Virus record (IMG/VR): IMGVR_UViG_2724679239_000006
DNA: 33,401 nucleotides
Strand: one strand, 5' to 3'
Source of the DNA: a virus
Lineage: Duplodnaviria > Heunggongvirae > Uroviricota > Caudoviricetes
Positions 5,027 to 15,429 of the stretch are shown here, in pieces. The notes under the pieces were generated by a model. The model had not been told where the DNA came from and did no database searches. It saw only the letters and a list, made by a program, of their open reading frames with translations. Position 1 is the first letter of the stretch. Every line of letters begins with the position of its first letter. Position numbers and translations under genes: made by a program.

Positions 5027-7810
5027 GTGGCAACGGAGTACATCAGAGACTGGCAACAACCACGCCATGCAGTCGGTCGCGAGGGAACGGGGGAGCCTGT
5101 CCGCCCCTCCCTTCTTTCTTCCTGGCTGGATGCCTACCGGGCAGAGAACGAGCGCCGCCAGGAAATGGCTGATGCGGCGTTCTCCGCTGCACCACTGGGC
5201 AATCTGATTAATAAAAGCCTGGACGCACAGGAAAAACAGGACAAAGTCATCACACTGGCAAGAGAAGCCAGAAAGCAGGCACGCGGTGCGGTGGATGAAG
5301 CCATGGCCTCGCTGCGTCTGCTGCCGTCCTATCTGCGTGATCCGCTTATCCGCCATCTCTCTTTCCTGCGCAAAAAACAGGAATCTGGCCACCAGAAAGG
5401 CAAAAAGAACCAGCAGGCGGAACGCTATGCGAGCGGAACCCTGCGCAAAATATTCGAACGCCTGGCCCGCACCGACCGTCGCTGGCTGACTCCGGGTTAT
5501 CGCTCCCTTGCCGGACGTGAACGTCTGGACGATTTGCTGTACCTGCCACAGCTCAACAAGCACCAGATACAGACGCTGGCCGTCATGACGGCGGCAATGT
5601 TCAGCAGCACCTTCGAAAAACTCTGCGATGGCTGTGGCGCGACCGACGGCGAGCTGACCATGGATATAACGCTGAAGGCGTATCAGATGCTGGCCCGCAT
5701 GGCGTTACATCTGCACACAGTGCCGCCGCATTATGACGCACTGACAACAGACAAAGACCGGAAGAACGAACCGGACACGGAACTGCTGCCGGGTGCAATC
5801 CTCCGCCTGACCTGTGCGGACTGGTGGAAACGCAAACTGTGGCTTTTACGTTGCGAATGGAGAGAGGAACAACTCCGCGCTGCCTGTCTGGTTTCCAGAA
5901 AAACATCACCCTATCTGAGTCAGGACGCATTAAGTGAATTTCGCGCACAGCGCGAGAAAACACGCGATTTCCTGAAAAGTTTCATGCTGGAAAATGAAGA
6001 CGGGTTCACGATTGATCTCGAGACAGTGTATTACGCGGGAGTAAGTAACCCGGTCCACCGTAAGGCAGAAATGATGGCCACCATGAAGGGACTGGAACTT
6101 CTGGCCGAAGCCCGTGGCGACAGAGCGGTGTTTCTGACTGTCACCTGCCCGTCAAAATACCACGCTACAACAGAGAACGGTCATCCGAATCCCAAATGGA
6201 ACGGCGCCACCATGCGCGATTCCAGTGATTACCTGGTTAACACTTTTTTTAAGGCGGTCCGCAAAAAACTGAATCGCGACGGCCTGCGCTGGTATGGCAT
6301 CCGCACGGTGGAGCCACACCATGACGGCACCGTGCACTGGCACATGATGGTCTTTGCACATCCTGAAGAAATCGACAGCATCGTGGACATCACCCGTGAT
6401 ATTGCCATTCGCGAAGACCGCCACGAGCTGGGCAATGACATAACTCCGCGCTTTAAGGCAGAGTACGTCGACGGTTCGAAAGGTACGCCGACCAGCTACA
6501 TCGCCACCTACATCGGAAAGAACCTGGACAGCCGCGCCGTGGATGGCATTGACCCGAAAACAGGCAAGCCACGCGTTGATCACGAAACCGGAAAATCAAT
6601 GGCCGAGAGCGTGGAACGCGCCATCGGCTGGGCGCGCCTTCACCGCGTCCGCCAGTTCCAGTTCTTTGGTATCCCCTCCCGTCAGGTATGGCGTGAACTC
6701 CGCCGCCTTGCCAGTCAGATGGCCCGCAACCCGGAAGGTCCACAACGTCTGGAAAATGACGCAATGGATGCGGTACTCGCTGCCGCTGATGCCGGGTGTT
6801 TTGCCACCTACATTGAGAAACAGGGTGGCGTACTTGTTCCACGCAAGGATTACCTGATTCGCACCGCCTACGACCTCGCAGAAGAGCTGAACGATTACGG
6901 CGAGCAAAGCGTACAGATTTACGGGATCTGGTCGCCACAAATCGGGGAATCTTCCCGCGTGTGCACGCACCCGGATAACTGGAAGCTGGTAAGACGTAAA
7001 CCGGAAGCGGAAGACAGCGCCCGCGAAAATGGTTTTGACCTTCAGGGCGGCCCTGCCGCCCCTTGGACTCGTGGCAATAACTGTCCCCGTGTACAGGAAA
7101 CGGACAACAACGGGACAGAACGGCCAGCACCGTGGCCGCAGCTTCCTGACGGCGTTGATGTGGATGAATGGATGCGCTCACTGAAACGGCACGAAAGCCG
7201 GGCGCTGATGCGTTCGCTGCGTGACAAACAGGCAAAAAACAACAGTGATGAAATGCAGAACTGGACACAGAGCCGCAAACAGCCGCGGCCTTTGCCTGAT
7301 AACCACGAGTTACTCGCTAAAGAATGGCGGGAGTCTGCCGAATCTCTCGGCCTGCATATCGGTGAACAACAGATGCAGCACCTGTTACGGGGCGGCAGTC
7401 TGTACGTTGACGGCAGCATCATTGCACCGCAGGGATTTGAAATTGTACGTAAACCGGATACCCGACCGGACAGCCGAATCACACAACTCTGGCAGCGCCT
7501 GAGCCGTAATCACGGCGTAAACAGCACGGAAATCCGCCATAACCCGGTTTCCAGCTATCTGAAACAGCTCGGGGCATCAGACCCAGAAGCCGCCGCACGC
7601 CTGGCATCCACAATTCAGCAGGACCAGAACACCATGAAAACACCCGTTACCGTACTTTCTGACATGCTGCGCACCATCCGTGACGCAGAGCACGCACAGA
7701 GAATCAGTGAAACCACTGAACGCGCCCGCCGCAAAGCAGACCTGCTGCGGTGGCCTGACCAGCGAAAACAAAAAACAGACAGAAACGGGATTCACAAATC
7801 CCGTAAATGA
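5027..7810 (+). CDS. A: Rolling-circle replication initiation protein (P2 gpA-like)
   Basis: 927-aa ORF (GTG start at 5027; true start uncertain); HUH-type motif GTVHWHMMVFAH and tyrosine-rich motif SYIATYIGKN typical of P2 A/phiX A-type relaxases. Confidence 0.85.
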   Translation: MATEYIRDWQQPRHAVGREGTGEPVRPSLLSSWLDAYRAENERRQEMADAAFSAAPLGNLINKSLDAQEKQDKVITLAREARKQARGAVDEAMASLRLLPSYLRDPLIRHLSFLRKKQESGHQKGKKNQQAERYASGTLRKIFERLARTDRRWLTPGYRSLAGRERLDDLLYLPQLNKHQIQTLAVMTAAMFSSTFEKLCDGCGATDGELTMDITLKAYQMLARMALHLHTVPPHYDALTTDKDRKNEPDTELLPGAILRLTCADWWKRKLWLLRCEWREEQLRAACLVSRKTSPYLSQDALSEFRAQREKTRDFLKSFMLENEDGFTIDLETVYYAGVSNPVHRKAEMMATMKGLELLAEARGDRAVFLTVTCPSKYHATTENGHPNPKWNGATMRDSSDYLVNTFFKAVRKKLNRDGLRWYGIRTVEPHHDGTVHWHMMVFAHPEEIDSIVDITRDIAIREDRHELGNDITPRFKAEYVDGSKGTPTSYIATYIGKNLDSRAVDGIDPKTGKPRVDHETGKSMAESVERAIGWARLHRVRQFQFFGIPSRQVWRELRRLASQMARNPEGPQRLENDAMDAVLAAADAGCFATYIEKQGGVLVPRKDYLIRTAYDLAEELNDYGEQSVQIYGIWSPQIGESSRVCTHPDNWKLVRRKPEAEDSARENGFDLQGGPAAPWTRGNNCPRVQETDNNGTERPAPWPQLPDGVDVDEWMRSLKRHESRALMRSLRDKQAKNNSDEMQNWTQSRKQPRPLPDNHELLAKEWRESAESLGLHIGEQQMQHLLRGGSLYVDGSIIAPQGFEIVRKPDTRPDSRITQLWQRLSRNHGVNSTEIRHNPVSSYLKQLGASDPEAAARLASTIQQDQNTMKTPVTVLSDMLRTIRDAEHAQRISETTERARRKADLLRWPDQRKQKTDRNGIHKSRK

Positions 7811-7880
7811 GCGAAAAACACGCCGCGATATATGAAACGCGCACAAAACAGGCAAAAGCGGGATTTCAGAATCCCGTAAA
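7785..7880. promoter_or_regulatory. Two copies of a 23-bp motif CGGGATT-N5-AATCCCGTAAA (7785..7807 and 7858..7880) bracketing the probable parM promoter
   Basis: Direct repeat of an internally palindromic motif; first copy overlaps the 3' end of gene A, second lies about 30 bp upstream of the parM start. Confidence 0.35.
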
Positions 7881-7911
7881 CGATTAATTAATCAACATAA
7901 GGAAAATCGAC

Positions 7912-8871
7912 ATGAAAATTTGCATCGACGACGGCTCCACCAACATCAAGCTGGCATGGACTGAGAACGGCGAACGCCGCAACGCCATCAGCCCGAACAG
8001 CTTCAAGTCGGAATGGTCTGCGCCGTTCGGTGGCACGCAGCCCGCGAACTACATGCTTGATGGCGTGCGCTATGGTTTTGATCCGGTCAGCGATCGCTTT
8101 GTCCAGACGACCGACACGCAATACCAGTACAGCGATGTGAATGTCATTGCCATTCATCACGCGCTGGTCAAATCAGGTATCACACCACAGGAAGTGGACG
8201 TGGTTGTCACTCTGCCACTGAGCGAGTATTTCGATACAAACGCACAGCCGGACATGGCCAACATCAACCGCAAAAAAGCGAATGTCCTGCGCCCTGTGGA
8301 GTACCAGAACGGTGAAGCATTCACTATCCGCAACGTGCGGGTTATGCCTGAATCCATTCCGGCTGGCTTTAAGGCACTGGCTGACATGAGTCCGTTTGAA
8401 TCTCTGCTGATTGTGGATTTAGGCGGAACAACGCTGGATGTGGCAAAGGTTCAGGGGCAACTGGCAGGCATCAGCCAGGTATTTTGCGATCCACATGTGG
8501 GCGTTTCCCTGATGACCGATGCCGTGTTGTCGGTGATGGCCGCCAACGGCATGCGTACCAGTCACCACGTCGCCAGTACCGTTATTGAACATCGTCACGA
8601 TGAAGCCTGGCTGCGCCGGCACATCCACAATGACGCGCATTACAACAGCCTGATGGCAGTTATTCGTGAAAAGGAGGAGACACTAAAACAACGCGTGATC
8701 CGCGCACTCGCGGGCTTTTCGGGTTACGGGCGGGTGCTGGTTGTCGGTGGAGGAGCGGAGATTGTGGCACCCGCAGTCCATGAAGTCTATGGAGTCAATG
8801 CGAATTTCATCACAGACGGGGTGCCACAGTTTGCTCTGGTTAACGGTCTGTACGCTATGGATAAGGAGTAA
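7912..8871 (+). CDS. parM: Actin-like segregation ATPase ParM/StbA
   Basis: 319 aa; N-terminus MKICIDDGSTNIKLAW and colinear conserved blocks (YSDVNVIAIHHAL, VMPESIPAG, LIVDLGGTTLD, VVGGGAE, LVNGLY) match plasmid R1 ParM as remembered. Confidence 0.85.
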   Translation: MKICIDDGSTNIKLAWTENGERRNAISPNSFKSEWSAPFGGTQPANYMLDGVRYGFDPVSDRFVQTTDTQYQYSDVNVIAIHHALVKSGITPQEVDVVVTLPLSEYFDTNAQPDMANINRKKANVLRPVEYQNGEAFTIRNVRVMPESIPAGFKALADMSPFESLLIVDLGGTTLDVAKVQGQLAGISQVFCDPHVGVSLMTDAVLSVMAANGMRTSHHVASTVIEHRHDEAWLRRHIHNDAHYNSLMAVIREKEETLKQRVIRALAGFSGYGRVLVVGGGAEIVAPAVHEVYGVNANFITDGVPQFALVNGLYAMDKE

Positions 8872-8877
8872 CCCTCC

Positions 8878-9189
8878 ATGGCGACATTAACCAGAAGAAT
8901 AAGTTTCTATCTGAAGCCAGCCGCCGTCAAGAACGAAGGCAAAGCATGCGACTGGCTGGACAGCCTTACACCAGAAGCCCGCAAAAGCGGCCAACGCGTG
9001 GCTTTTCTGGCCGGGCTGGCACTTCTGAAAATGAATCCGGCAGAGGCTTACCGACTGTCTGCATGGGCTGATGATGAGGCGTTATCAGTGACACAAACCA
9101 GGGCAGAACGCCACATGTTACAGCCAGCGCCCACCGCACAGATAACCAGTCAGATAGCCGGAAATATCCGGGCGTTATTTCCCGAATAA
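8878..9189 (+). CDS. parR: ParR-like centromere-binding adaptor (RHH)
   Basis: 103 aa directly downstream of parM; RRISFYLKPAAV...CDWLDSLTPEARKSGQRVAFLAGLAL parallels the R1 ParR N-terminal region. Confidence 0.7.
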   Translation: MATLTRRISFYLKPAAVKNEGKACDWLDSLTPEARKSGQRVAFLAGLALLKMNPAEAYRLSAWADDEALSVTQTRAERHMLQPAPTAQITSQIAGNIRALFPE

Positions 9190-9240
9190 CACAACATCAG
9201 GGCGCTGGCCAGTAGGGGCAAGGCTATAAATAGATGAGCA

Positions 9241-9263
9241 AAACGCCCTCCTCCAGGGCGTTT
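9241..9263 (+). terminator. Rho-independent terminator downstream of parR
   Basis: 9-bp stem AAACGCCCT/AGGGCGTTT with 5-nt loop followed by a T-rich tract. Confidence 0.5.
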
Positions 9264-9270
9264 ATTTCAA

Positions 9271-9300
9271 TGCACAATAGTGCACAAATTTGCACAATTT
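9271..9300. repeat. Three tandem 10-bp iterons TGCACAAWWW
   Basis: TGCACAATAG TGCACAAATT TGCACAATTT in helical phase; a fourth GTGCACAAA near 9362 and a GGATCCGT direct repeat at about 9341..9360. Confidence 0.4.
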
Positions 9301-9552
9301 TTTTGAACGACTTTTTACCCTTCCGGCCCGCGTGGTGGCTGGATCCGTCAAGGATCCGTGCGTGCACAAAAAAACGCGTTTTTTCTGCGCGCAGGTGACG
9401 GGGGAACAGCCCGCGTTTCAGGGGGTAAATAGCATTCCCCGAGCGATGTCGCAGCGACACAACAGAATGGCTGTATTTCTCACGCTGAGCGTGAAAAAGA
9501 CGTAAGGGTTTTTGATTTGATGGGTTGAAAGGTAAGGCCGTCAAAATCGCAC

Positions 9553-9575
9553 TGAGGCGGCGAGAACATACAGTC
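9553..9575. other. Candidate cos (cohesive end) site
   Basis: GAGGCGGCGAGAACA resembles the remembered P2 cohesive-end sequence GGCGAGGCGGGGAAAGCAC (12 of 15 positions) and lies about 150 bp beyond the portal gene 3' end, as in P2. Confidence 0.25.
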
Positions 9576-9671
9576 AACGCGGTGGGATTGCGTAAGAGTC
9601 TGACCGTCGATGGTGGCGATAAACTGGAAGGCGTCGTGAAATTATCTGACTGATACAGGAGCTGGAGAGTC

Positions 9672-9694
9672 GGGGCATAAATTTTTTATGCCCC
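9672..9694. terminator. Strong hairpin terminator between the cos region and the portal gene 3' end
   Basis: 10-bp stem GGGGCATAAA/TTTATGCCCC with 3-nt loop, A/T tracts on both sides. Confidence 0.5.
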
Positions 9695-9721
9695 GGCGAA
9701 GCAGCAGACAAGCGAAGCGCG

Positions 9722-10768
9722 TCAGGCTGTGGGCTGGGTGTCTAACAGTGCGTAAGGGTTAAAGCGGATCACCTCTTCGCCCAGCCAGTCATTGATGTGC
9801 TTCATGGCCTCCATGACGGGCATCAGCTCGTTAATTGCGTAAACCCGCGCGGCCTTCTCCACATCACCAAACGCACTTTTTTCACCCGGCATCGCCCCCA
9901 TCAGTTGCGGCGGAACGCGGTGCGCAGCCAGCACATCATCACGGGATGCCGCCTTAACATTCATGAACTCATCCTTTGCGGTGATCTGCTGGAACGGCAA
10001 AATTTGCCCCCCCTCTTTGCCCCCGTTGGGCGCATGAATGAGCACGTTTTTAAACGCACCACCACCACGTGCACCCTGTAGCGTTTCTTTCAGGGAGTCC
10101 ATGCTTTCGCGGTTTACCTGCGCTGCACCGATGTAGATGATGCACCCGGCGTGGGATCCGTTGTCGTAATACAGTTTTCTGAACATGTCCGCCGAATGAG
10201 ACAGGCTGGCCGAGAGTAATGCGCCGAGATATTCCGGCATGCCGTAGATTTCCTGGTTAATGTCAGGATTCATCAGGTGGCACACTTTACCAGGGCGAAA
10301 CTGAAACGCGTCCTTACCATCCTGCACATACCACCATGATTCAAGATCGCTTCCGCGTCGCATGTATTTCGCCAGGGCGTGCCGTAATTTAAGCGGTTCG
10401 CCGAGCATATTGCTTCGAAGCTCAAGGAATGCGTTACCGAACACAAACCAGTCCAGCGCCAGCGCCGAGAAATCCTGCCGGGAAAGCAACGGGTGCGGGA
10501 TGTAGCAACCGAGTAATACATTGCGCTTAAAGTAAAGCGCAGACTGATGCCAGGACGTTTGCCGGGCAGCTCTTGCCAGACCGTACCAGTCCACCGGGGT
10601 TTCATACCACCGCCCGTTATCAGCACAGTACATATTGTCCAGCAGGTCATGCCCAGTCAGGCGATAAGGACCATCAAATGTGAATGCACTGAGCGACGAT
10701 TCTTTCCTGAGCACATCAGCGAGATCAATGCGTGAACTCATGCGCACTTTTTTATTTTTTCTGCTCAT
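9722..10768 (-). CDS. Q: Portal protein (gpQ)
   Basis: 348 aa; position, size and orientation match P2 Q; ATGA overlap with the terminase gene stop. Confidence 0.9.
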   Translation of the reverse strand: MSRKNKKVRMSSRIDLADVLRKESSLSAFTFDGPYRLTGHDLLDNMYCADNGRWYETPVDWYGLARAARQTSWHQSALYFKRNVLLGCYIPHPLLSRQDFSALALDWFVFGNAFLELRSNMLGEPLKLRHALAKYMRRGSDLESWWYVQDGKDAFQFRPGKVCHLMNPDINQEIYGMPEYLGALLSASLSHSADMFRKLYYDNGSHAGCIIYIGAAQVNRESMDSLKETLQGARGGGAFKNVLIHAPNGGKEGGQILPFQQITAKDEFMNVKAASRDDVLAAHRVPPQLMGAMPGEKSAFGDVEKAARVYAINELMPVMEAMKHINDWLGEEVIRFNPYALLDTQPTA

Positions 10769-12519
10769 CAGAACTCCATAACCGTGAAACGCTCGTTTTC
10801 TCCTTCGCCGCCAATCGGTTCGTTAATGACTGCAAGCATGGTTGCCCACGCAAGGTCGCCGTGGCTGATCCCCCTAGCACGGTCCGTTTCGTAAGTAATG
10901 AAACCACCCGCCGTTTTTACCTTACGCACGGCGTTAAAGGCCGCAACCAGCTCACGTTCAGCGCGATCGTATTCCCACCGTCCGGCACGCATTATTTGCA
11001 GCATTTTCAGTACCAGCGACCGTTTTGATGACAGCGTGAAGGTGTACGGGATAGCCGCAGGGAAAAACCGTTTCACTATCTGATAAACAGCCTCCCCGTT
11101 CCCGCCCGTCACATCAATGCCGATGTGTTCCACGTTGTAGCGATACGTGAACTCTTCAATGACTCTGGCCTGTTCTTCAAATTCCAGCCCCTGAACGCGT
11201 CGCGTCTCCACCGTTCGAAAACGGCCACCAGGAACAGCCGGAGGAACCACCACGGACACAGCGCCGCTGTCGCCGTTGCCACTGCTGCCGTTTGCGTCAT
11301 ACCCAATCCATACCGGGCGATTCCCCATCGGGCGGGGAGCAAAAGGTTTCCAGTCTTTCCAGTCGTCGTATCCGTCAACACCGCAGCCAATCAGGATATT
11401 CAGGTTAAATGCCGATTCCCCTTCGCGAACAAATTCACACATATAGAGATTGCGGAACTCGTCTTCAGTGTTATTGCGTCGGATTTTGTCAATGCTGGTT
11501 AACGTCCATCCCTGATTGACCACATCTTCCAGCGTCACAATTTGCCGCCAGATGTAGTCAGGGCAGATAAGGCCGTTATGAAGTGCATTCCAGCTCACAT
11601 CAAAATGCTGACGTTTATGAGCACGAAGCCCTTCATTCCAGCGATCACCATTCCAGTATGCATACGCCTCATGTGTTTCACTTGATGGCGTGGAAAAATA
11701 GGTACACCGCAAACCATCCAGCGTTGCCATAGCAGCGGCCACCTTGCGCAGCTCTGTGAAACGCCCCGTCCAGAAAAACTCATCAAAATACAGATTCCCC
11801 GTGTACGATTGCGCGGTGGCCGCAGAAGTGCCGAGAAAATGCATCTCTGCGCCGTTGGAGAGGATAATTTTATCGCCCCCTTTCAGCTCCACATCAACTT
11901 CAGATGCAGCCTTCTGAATGATGTTTTTAAACTGGAACGCCTGACGACGCGACGCTGACAAAAAAATCTGGTTACGCTGGTAAGGTTGTGCCACATCGTC
12001 ACGTAACGCCATCAGCAGTGCTTCCTGTGCAAAATACCAGGTCGCCCCAATCTGTCGGGATTTCAGAATCATCCTGTCAGTAACTCCGGCACGCTCACAG
12101 GCACCGATAGCCTCAAACCATTTGCGCTGATGTCCGGCCAGCCTGCTGGTAATTTTTTCCCGCAGTGCGGCAATCTGTTCCGGCGTGAAATGATTTTTAA
12201 GTTTTTTCGCCCGGCCTTTCTTTCCTGTGGCCTTCGCATCCGGCTGGCCATCATGCAGTTTTTTAAGCTGCCGGGTCAGCAGGTCTATTTCCTTGAAGTC
12301 ACCACCTGTTTTATTCTGTTTTTCAGTAAGCTGGATAAGGCGCGCATCGATGGACTGCGTGACACGCTGCACGGGTGGCGTTTCATCCCACTGGTCGCGT
12401 TTTTTCCACGCATAAATCGTGTTCGGGTTTATTCCCATCAGACGTGATATTTCTGCGGGCGGGTAACCCTGCCAGTAAAGTTGTCGCGCACGCTGGCGCA
12501 CAAAAGCGTCCTGAATCAT
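10768..12519 (-). CDS. P: Terminase large (ATPase) subunit (gpP)
   Basis: 583 aa; divergent from the scaffold gene as in the P2 P/O arrangement. Confidence 0.9.
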   Translation of the reverse strand: MIQDAFVRQRARQLYWQGYPPAEISRLMGINPNTIYAWKKRDQWDETPPVQRVTQSIDARLIQLTEKQNKTGGDFKEIDLLTRQLKKLHDGQPDAKATGKKGRAKKLKNHFTPEQIAALREKITSRLAGHQRKWFEAIGACERAGVTDRMILKSRQIGATWYFAQEALLMALRDDVAQPYQRNQIFLSASRRQAFQFKNIIQKAASEVDVELKGGDKIILSNGAEMHFLGTSAATAQSYTGNLYFDEFFWTGRFTELRKVAAAMATLDGLRCTYFSTPSSETHEAYAYWNGDRWNEGLRAHKRQHFDVSWNALHNGLICPDYIWRQIVTLEDVVNQGWTLTSIDKIRRNNTEDEFRNLYMCEFVREGESAFNLNILIGCGVDGYDDWKDWKPFAPRPMGNRPVWIGYDANGSSGNGDSGAVSVVVPPAVPGGRFRTVETRRVQGLEFEEQARVIEEFTYRYNVEHIGIDVTGGNGEAVYQIVKRFFPAAIPYTFTLSSKRSLVLKMLQIMRAGRWEYDRAERELVAAFNAVRKVKTAGGFITYETDRARGISHGDLAWATMLAVINEPIGGEGENERFTVMEF

Positions 12520-14631: not shown

Positions 14632-15429
14632 ATGATTACTCCTGCACAGCAACACTGGCAGAACGTGATGGCACAGCGCGCAGGCCGGGCGAATGAAGGC
14701 GTGGACCACGCCGCGCGTACCGCGCATGAAGAGGTGCTGTATCGTCTGCGTCTGGCACAGGCCCGGCTTAAGGGCGTACAGGCCAGAAGCGCGAAAGCCG
14801 CCATCAAAAAAGAGTTGTTACCGGACTTTTCCGGCTGGATTGAGGGAACGCTGGAGGCTGACGGCGGGCAGCAGGATGAAGTGATTGCCACGCTGATGGT
14901 GTGGGCGATTGACTGCGGCGATCTTCCGCTTGCGCTGCGTATTGGTGCGTATGTGGTCCGTCACAACCTCATCATGCCGGATAACTTTGGCCGTACTGCT
15001 GCCACAGTGCTGACCGAAGAAATCTGCAACCCGGTATTGACGCAGGCCGGGACGGATGCCGACGCGGATTTGTCCACCTTTATCGAACCACTGGACACAC
15101 TTTGGGAAATTGTCGCCAACCAGGATATGCCGGACGAAGTGCGCGCCAAATTATGCAAGGCGTGCGCCTTTGCCCGCCGTGGCCTGAGCGATGCGGACAG
15201 CATGGCCTCATCACTGAAGCTGCTGCGCGAAGCGATGCACCTGAACCCGAACGCAGGTGTGAAACGCGAGATTGCAACCCTTTCCCGCGCCCTGAAAAAA
15301 GCCGATTCCGCAGCCGCACCAGTTGCCAGCGCACAGCAGGCGCAGGACGAAAGCAGCAAAAGTAAAAAGACAACGCGGAAGCCTGCAACACGAAAAACCA
15401 CCGCGACGCAGAAGGCGAAGCGCGGTTAA
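14632..15429 (+). CDS. M: Terminase small/endonuclease subunit (gpM)
   Basis: 265 aa; position after N; RBS GGAGAG. Confidence 0.85.
   Translation: MITPAQQHWQNVMAQRAGRANEGVDHAARTAHEEVLYRLRLAQARLKGVQARSAKAAIKKELLPDFSGWIEGTLEADGGQQDEVIATLMVWAIDCGDLPLALRIGAYVVRHNLIMPDNFGRTAATVLTEEICNPVLTQAGTDADADLSTFIEPLDTLWEIVANQDMPDEVRAKLCKACAFARRGLSDADSMASSLKLLREAMHLNPNAGVKREIATLSRALKKADSAAAPVASAQQAQDESSKSKKTTRKPATRKTTATQKAKRG

Follow-up and report, generated by a model that had tools for sequence, protein, structure and literature searches.

The TGCACAA repeats downstream of parR in the window, the whole 33,401-nucleotide stretch of viral DNA analyzed here, are very likely sub-sites within the cos signal for DNA packaging in a P88-like prophage of the P2 family. 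Three candidates had been put forward for this array in an earlier note, a ParR centromere, a terminase recognition site near cos and a binding array for a host factor, and it is the second that comparison with relatives favors, through a fixed linkage to cosN and the portal gene and through a geometry that recurs in the P2 family. The window itself is, by its sequence matches, an integrated P88-like (Xuanwuvirus, P2-family) prophage: a 2.1-kb stretch around the array shares 91-97% identity with Escherichia phage P88 and other Xuanwuvirus records, and matches to this stretch are present in 1,442 of 5,426 complete E. coli genomes (about a quarter), nearly always in the chromosome. The genes that frame the array are the following.

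5027-7810: gpA-type replication endonuclease (PF05840)
7912-8871, + strand: parM (PF06406/PF21523)
8878-9189, + strand: parR (PF10784), forming with parM a type II partition cassette
9722-10768, - strand: portal protein, homologue of P2 gpQ (PF04860)
10768-12519, - strand: large terminase subunit, homologue of P2 gpP, so annotated in P88 and in E. coli relatives
14632-15429, + strand: small terminase subunit gpM, homologue of P2 gpM (PF05944, E = 1e-36)

Beyond the large terminase subunit, the gene order continues with scaffold and capsid before reaching gpM, which is 37% identical to gpM of P2; sequence searches of the PDB with gpM and with ParR returned no relatives. The non-coding interval, previously put at about 530 bp, indeed measures 532 bp between the stops of parR (9189) and the portal gene (9722), and its small open reading frames fail conservation tests. 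The frame at 9290-9505 was rejected as a gene on account of internal stops in 41 of 54 relatives, and the 42-residue frame at 9525-9653, listed as hypothetical in P88 and P884B11, shows no excess of variable sites at the third codon position (22/17/13) and is probably not a gene. An Rfam scan of 9150-9760 gave no match. A sigma-70 promoter scan of 7700-9800 found none, and the array was no longer considered as a promoter or operator. The interval is instead populated by repeats and inverted repeats, as listed here from the parR side to the portal side.

9242-9267, + strand: terminator-like hairpin AACGCCCT-CCTCC-AGGGCGTT with a T-rich tail, ending the parMR/cargo transcription unit just 5' of the array
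9271-9277, 9281-9287 and 9291-9297, + strand: R1, R2 and R3, each TGCACAA, at an exact 10-bp period
9298-9304, + strand: T7 tract directly 3' of R3, which may bend the DNA; a weak R2/R3 hairpin followed by the T run is possible
9341-9348 and 9352-9359, + strand: GGATCCGT direct repeat at an 11-bp period, with a GATC site in each copy
9363-9369, + strand: R4, a TGCACAA unit with an A tract behind it, 72 bp beyond R3, with the cosN-like sequence another 31 bp on
9369-9384: perfect palindrome AAAAAACGCGTTTTTT between R4 and cosN
9394-9412, + strand: cosN-like sequence GGTGACGGGGGAACAGCCC, by homology the putative cohesive end and terminase nick site
9671-9695: perfect hairpin with 11-bp arms, CGGGGCATAAA-TTT-TTTATGCCCCG, shortly past the portal stop and equivalent to P2 tQ and 186 tW

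All four iterons previously reported are present, at 9271, 9281, 9291 and 9363 on the + strand, with the tandem units reading TGCACAATAG, TGCACAAATT and TGCACAATTT; the description of each TGCACAA as followed by three A or T letters holds for the most part and fails at one base, the G at 9280. Outside R1-R4, just two further copies of TGCACAA occur in the 33.4-kb window, and a 7-mer in three copies at an exact 10-bp period occurs in it once. Considering that about 1.3e-4 such three-copy arrays are expected per window and that none appeared in 300 first-order Markov simulations, the array is far beyond chance.

The assignment to cos draws on the cosN-like sequence. This GC-rich 19-nt stretch aligns ungapped with the annotated P2 cohesive end GGCGAGGCGGGGAAAGCAC (P2 cosL), sharing 13 of 19 positions and differing at 6, and relatives with GGCGAGGCGGGGGAGCAAG at the same offset bridge the two; across 54 distinct relatives, 9394-9412 is among the least variable parts of the interval. 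In the window type, the array lies 103 bp upstream of this sequence, as counted from R3, and about 430-454 bp from the portal stop. An initial guess for cosN, GGCGGCGAGAACATAC at ~9557, was dropped for the P2-homologous motif at 9394 with its fixed offset. The linear P884B11 record begins between R3 and the spacer (window ~9316), a point that was likewise rejected as a physical end and taken as an arbitrary cut, since no cohesive-end homology is found there.

To follow the array through its relatives, IMG/VR viral contigs were scanned for the exact pattern, which gave 120 loci, and homologues of gpA, ParM, ParR and the portal protein were then located around them. The cosN-like motif lies 101-104 bp after R3 in 107 of the 120 loci, and R4 stands as TGCACAA at exactly +72 from R3 in at least 99 of these 107. 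Of the 77 loci whose downstream DNA is long enough, 74 have a portal homologue, which ends 380-1080 bp from the array. Conservation of R1-R3 in this set is partly circular, the loci having been picked by the exact pattern; R4, the GGATCCGT pair and positions 9381-9430, which the search pattern did not include, rank among the least variable positions of the P88-type relatives. As a control for ascertainment, 80 loci were collected through the portal protein alone, blind to the repeats, of which 74 were usable. A strict TGCA-N6-TGCA-N68-TGCA arrangement is present in 49 of these, with 5 more under relaxed spacing, and the remaining 20 mostly deviate by a single core base (e.g. CGCACAA) or by 1 bp of spacing. 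Information content, computed over 42 non-redundant representatives, peaks at R2, at R3 with its T tract, at R4 with its A tract and at cosN; R1 is poorly conserved in the portal-anchored set and the spacers are variable.

The distance to the portal gene falls into more than one class. In L035, L042, L046, L085, L091, L094, L098 and L101, as well as in L120, L122, L127, L110 and L108, the portal stop lies ~900-1080 bp from the array as against ~454 bp, and an insertion of ~450-620 bp is therefore placed between cosN and the portal gene, possibly marking a second small cargo site.

The bare 7-mer pattern is not diagnostic by itself. When genome_contigs were scanned with TGCACAA-N3-TGCACAA-N3-TGCACAA, 104 of the 120 matches fell in other phyla and lacked a cos module (many in Bryobacteraceae, Bacteroidota, Akkermansia and Verrucomicrobia, within L216-L335), often with variable 3-nt spacers and several arrays per genome, where ~0.3 chance matches are expected in the collection. 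It is probable that another iteron-type element uses the same 7-mer in those unrelated taxa, and with so many unrelated matches the pattern cannot be used alone to find cos sites. One match of a different kind, L266, is labelled Vagococcus sp. WN89Y, a Firmicute, and its P88-type cos module agrees with the window at all but two positions of the 150-bp array-to-cosN segment; it looks like contamination or mis-binning.

The same layout is found at the right ends of P2, P4, 186 and PsP3, where TGCAT occurs at about -22 (-22/-23/-19), -10, 0 and +72, with the cohesive end at +101. The cohesive ends are annotated in P2 and 186, and the records of P4 and PsP3 terminate at the corresponding point; the TGCAT at +72 of P2 and of P4 belongs to the segment that the two share beside the cohesive end. 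When the window is stacked without gaps on eight other lineages and on P2 and P4, the TGCA cores line up, as does cosN, and the DNA between them differs. Since P4 has little in common with P2 apart from its packaging specificity (PMC9122126, PMC9594776), the repeats of P4 at identical spacing are telling. As in the window, these cos sites lie between a variable cargo region and the portal gene, with three phased TGCA-core repeats ~100 bp and a fourth ~30 bp upstream of the cohesive end and, in every case, 72 bp from R3 to R4; 186 shares in addition a terminator just upstream of the repeats. The window departs from them in its unit and phasing (TGCACAA at exactly 10/10 bp versus TGCAT(T/G) at 9-13/10 bp), in the GGATCCGT duplication of its spacer, which is specific to the lineage, and in the distance from cosN to the portal stop (~310 bp versus 187 bp in P2). 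Hairpin 9671-9695 has its positional equivalents in tQ and tW as annotated in P2 and 186.

The module of the P2-family cos extends to satellites, and the same is seen for that of the window. Two contigs, L113 and L128 (array of the latter at 8642, in array orientation), encode an integrase, an 889-residue Toprim primase-like protein, a 449-residue homologue of the P2 capsid protein with an N-terminal extension and a MazF-like toxin; no homologue of portal, TerL, gpM, gpA, ParM or ParR was detected in their contig DNA. Both carry R1-R3, R4 and a cosN-like motif around a different spacer. A third contig, L117 (array at 2953), has an integrase and truncated gpO-, gpN- and gpM-like genes directly after cos, with no homologue of portal, TerL, gpA, ParM or ParR in the contig DNA; here R1-R3 and R4 are present, and a divergent GC-rich sequence, outside the cosN pattern used, takes the place of cosN. 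The three may be capsid-remodelling satellites of P2-like helpers, and we infer that they are packaged by P88-like helpers.

Aggregated, the array occupies the position of a cos site, between the cargo hotspot and portal gene Q, together with a GC-rich homologue of the cohesive end, flanking elements at fixed distances across divergent members and a module common to satellites. A functional (deletion) analysis of P2/P4 cos was reportedly made by Ziermann & Calendar in 1990. Outside that work and the Christie & Calendar 2016 review, our literature searches found no description of repeats in P2-family cos sites. A cargo hotspot next to cos has been described in P2-family phages (PMC9122126), and P2 and P4 cos share a 55-bp core, with flanks beyond this core raising cosmid transduction more than 1000-fold (PMC9594776). 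Thus cos of P2 and P4 is already known, and the repeats of the window are by sequence its counterpart in the P88-like lineage; the new part may be the 3+1 geometry conserved across helpers and satellites.

The spacers hold further elements that vary by lineage. The duplication of GGATCCGT noted before is indeed there, at 9341 and 9352, and a third copy at 10154 is unrelated. The pair alone does not exceed chance, as the window has 8 comparable two-copy 8-mer repeats at offsets of 8-15 bp. It is nearly invariant among P88-type relatives, is reduced to a single copy in L209 and L278, and is absent from the phiT5282H-type and L015-type phages, from L113 and L128, and from P2, P4 and 186, while counterparts elsewhere (GGATCGG or GGATCCGT) exist only for the second copy. 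The comparison identifies the pair as a lineage-specific duplication in the R3-R4 spacer, and it is probably dispensable. At the position of palindrome 9369-9384, the stacked comparison shows different GC-rich inverted repeats in other lineages. In the middle of the R3-R4 spacer (window ~9320-9345), a GC-rich inverted repeat with (T)GGCGCGG as its end is seen in most lineages, e.g. CCGCGCC-N6-GGCGCGG in P4 and GCCAGAGCTGGCGCGG in 186, with arms that vary by lineage; the window has a weak version only (CCGGCC...GGCTGG) and P2 none that is obvious. This inverted repeat may represent a further sub-site.

The T tract after R3 is conserved in most TGCACAA-type lineages (as TGCACAATTTTT), and a terminator scan flags 9280-9295 with AATTTTTTTG. 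Together with the position of the array, always after the hotspot and usually after a stronger terminator, this raises the idea of an element that mainly insulates transcription, where the R2-R3 hairpin and the T7 run act as a back-up terminator barring read-through from the cargo hotspot into cos and the repeats are a by-product of the palindromic TGCA core. The R2-R3 stem has however only 5 pairs, P2, P4 and 186 show no T run after R3, and neither R1 and R4 nor the invariant 72-bp and ~30-bp spacings to cosN are explained in this manner, and we give the idea very little credence.

Another reading takes the array as the target of a host protein. Here DnaA or a nucleoid-associated bending protein would bind the repeats, shaping cos or coupling packaging to the state of the host, and the terminase would read cosN only. 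The relaxed DnaA-box consensus is TTWTNCACA, to which ATTTGCACA at R3 matches at 8 of 9 positions; A/T tracts follow directly after R3 and R4, and in lambda the host factor IHF binds within cosB. On the other hand, R1, R2 and R4 agree with the DnaA box at only 6-7 of 9 positions, matches to TTWTNCACA are not kept across the homologous sites, and a check of the spacer by eye gave no clear IHF consensus. The partial DnaA-box resemblance of R3 is thus what stands of the host-factor candidate, while the units of P2, P4, 186 and PsP3 are TGCAT and lack the CACA core with the geometry kept. A binder that co-evolves with the phage consequently fits better than an invariant host protein, and we regard the host-protein explanation as unlikely.

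The remaining candidate, a ParR centromere downstream of parR, draws on gene order. As a parC, the array would be bound by ParR, which would coat the 3-4 repeats, capture ParM filaments and segregate an episomal form of the phage. The array starts only 82 bp past the parR stop in the window, ParR is a PF10784 protein and partition proteins of such kind bind tandem direct repeats; moreover, Rousset et al. speculated that prophages of this sort could be maintained as plasmids through the par system (PMC9122126). Against this, the terminator-like hairpin 9242-9267 stands between parR and the array, and in 32 of 34 relatives with ParR unrelated cargo of 0.5-1.9 kb is inserted there as well. Over the loci, the array lies anywhere from 86 to 1920 bp past the ParR stop, and the adjacent arrangement of the window is found in two loci only. 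Among 62 loci with at least 3.3 kb of upstream DNA, ParR is present in 34 and the identical array occurs without it in 28, and the same layout is seen in the satellite-like contigs and in P2, P4, 186 and PsP3, where no par genes were detected in the cos-adjacent stretches examined.

The loci lacking ParR are not of one kind. A gpA homologue was detectable in 27 of the 28, 11 of which carry the gpA type of the window (86-93% identity), and most of the others belong to a distant lineage (gpA ~33%, portal ~69% identity) exemplified by Enterobacter phage phiT5282H, with an FtsH-like ATPase and an S8 peptidase as cargo. ParR variants of ~48-50%, 86-90% and 96-100% identity lie beside the same array, a comparison weakened by the choice of the loci through the exact array and by the first ~18 codons that the divergent ParRs keep.

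The boundaries of homology agree with this independence. P88, E. coli L9 and O26:H11 have 450-850 bp of extra genes between parR and hairpin 9242-9267, which they keep downstream of their cargo genes, and in an alignment of four relatives the whole block from the terminator through the repeats to the portal gene remains together. Other relatives have different hairpins in place of 9242-9267, with R1 marking the exact point where homology is regained, and for many phage records the match to the window sets in at this repeat or slightly before it. Phage 186 has the annotated terminator t95b at the equivalent position.

In ParMRC systems, parC is a set of repeats bound by ParR that directly precedes parM and overlaps the par promoter. 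The array resembles a parC of the R1 type in being made of short tandem direct repeats with roughly helical spacing next to a parMR operon, but it lies on the wrong side of the operon and behind a terminator, has a 10-bp instead of an 11-bp period with only three adjacent copies, and is not co-inherited with parM and parR. The centromere proposal thus gives way before the terminator, the ParR-free loci and the par-less phages, and we hold it to be extremely improbable. By these comparisons, the array adjoins parR only by accident of gene order.

A better candidate for the centromere lies on the other side of the cassette, just upstream of parM.

7786-7803: 18-bp palindrome CGGGATTCACAAATCCCG, of the form CGGGATT-N4-AATCCCG
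7859-7876: 18-bp palindrome CGGGATTTCAGAATCCCG, of the same form, 73 bp from the first

Each palindrome sits in a 42-bp direct repeat (7769-7883), the first within the last codons of gpA. Their occurrence follows the par cassette strictly, which speaks further against the array as parC: two copies are present in 33 of 33 loci with the gpA type of the window and ParM, and not a single one in the 10 loci that share this gpA type but lack ParM, nor in any of the 64 loci without ParM. When plasmids were searched by tblastn with ParR, almost only copies in P88-like prophages were returned. A homologue on a Rahnella plasmid, with a ParR 33% identical to that of the window, carries 11-bp iterons, CTCATATTTAT, in two clusters ahead of parM and no similar repeats behind parR, so that a centromere of this par family is to be expected upstream of parM. 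Accordingly placed, the palindromes at 7786-7876 appear to be the likelier ParR operator and centromere (parC) than the array.

Several observations concern the history of the cassette. The C-terminal ~35 codons of gpA differ between relatives with and without par, and with the co-occurrence of the palindromes the cassette therefore seems to bring along its own operator/centromere and a new gpA tail. In L021, L045, L079, L098, L102, L112, L120 and L127, ParR is just ~48-50% identical to that of the window, with ParM at ~94% (where full) and the upstream palindromes nearly the same; the megablast match to related phages ends ~55 bp into parR. This suggests a mosaic junction inside parR. Finally, one E. 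coli record entered as a plasmid, NZ_CP148288.1 (34,461 bp), matches the entire parMR-cos stretch and is as long as the genome of a P88-like phage; it may represent an excised or episomal state, with a bearing on why an integrating phage has parMR.

Returning to the repeats as cos sub-sites, the protein that binds R1-R4 is probably the small terminase subunit gpM, as proposed from the position of the repeats and by analogy with other cos phages. Identity of gpM is 53-98% among TGCACAA-type phages, at most 39% to P2 and 30% for the gpM-like protein of L117; this identity tracks phylogeny and so provides no independent test of the binder. Counted from R3, the sites stand at -20, -10, 0, +72 and +103 bp, spacings near whole helical turns, so that all of them could face one side of the DNA. 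The module would then read in order as R1-R3, on one helix face with their 10-bp period, and the T tract; a 72-bp spacer; R4 and the A tract; 31 bp; and cosN. An oligomer of gpM would bind R1-R3 as well as R4 and bend or wrap the 72-bp spacer between them, by which the large subunit gpP would be positioned on cosN and cut there, to start or to finish packaging. Satellites that copy the module would in this manner have their DNA packaged by the terminase of the helper.

Such an arrangement calls to mind cosB of lambda, which is built as R3-I1-R2-R1, combining sites for the small terminase subunit gpNu1 with one for IHF. Common to both are several short repeats beside cosN that could assemble terminase and a spacer long enough to need bending. 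The repeats of the window are however separated by cosN from the terminase and portal genes, a position held by cosQ in lambda, the small subunit belongs to a different family, PF05944, and by eye no IHF site was identified. On these points the array is not a lambda-type cosB, and the resemblance is functional only. Because of the location of the repeats opposite the terminase-gene side, they could act in initiation as lambda cosB does, in termination as lambda cosQ does, or in both steps, and termination appears equally possible. P2 packages from monomeric circles, and one cos would consequently serve initiation as well as termination.

Beyond the single site, we tentatively suggest that the 3+1 TGCA-core repeats (R1-R3, 72 bp, R4, ~30 bp, cosN) could constitute a recognition code of the P2-family small terminase (PF05944), with a geometry conserved across Peduoviridae and copied by satellites, and a unit variant (TGCACAA versus TGCAT) that helps decide which helper packages which satellite; this broader proposal is put forward with some reserve. 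For P88-like prophages, the comparison provides a precise map of the cos site and removes a tempting mis-annotation, in which tandem repeats beside parR are read as a centromere. It brings P2, 186, PsP3, P4 and the new satellite-like elements under one recognition-repeat geometry, useful for the design of cosmids and transducing particles of the P2/P4 type, where flanks past the 55-bp core matter, and for predicting the compatibility of helpers and satellites. The array would furthermore offer a defined DNA substrate for a small-terminase family that is without a structure.
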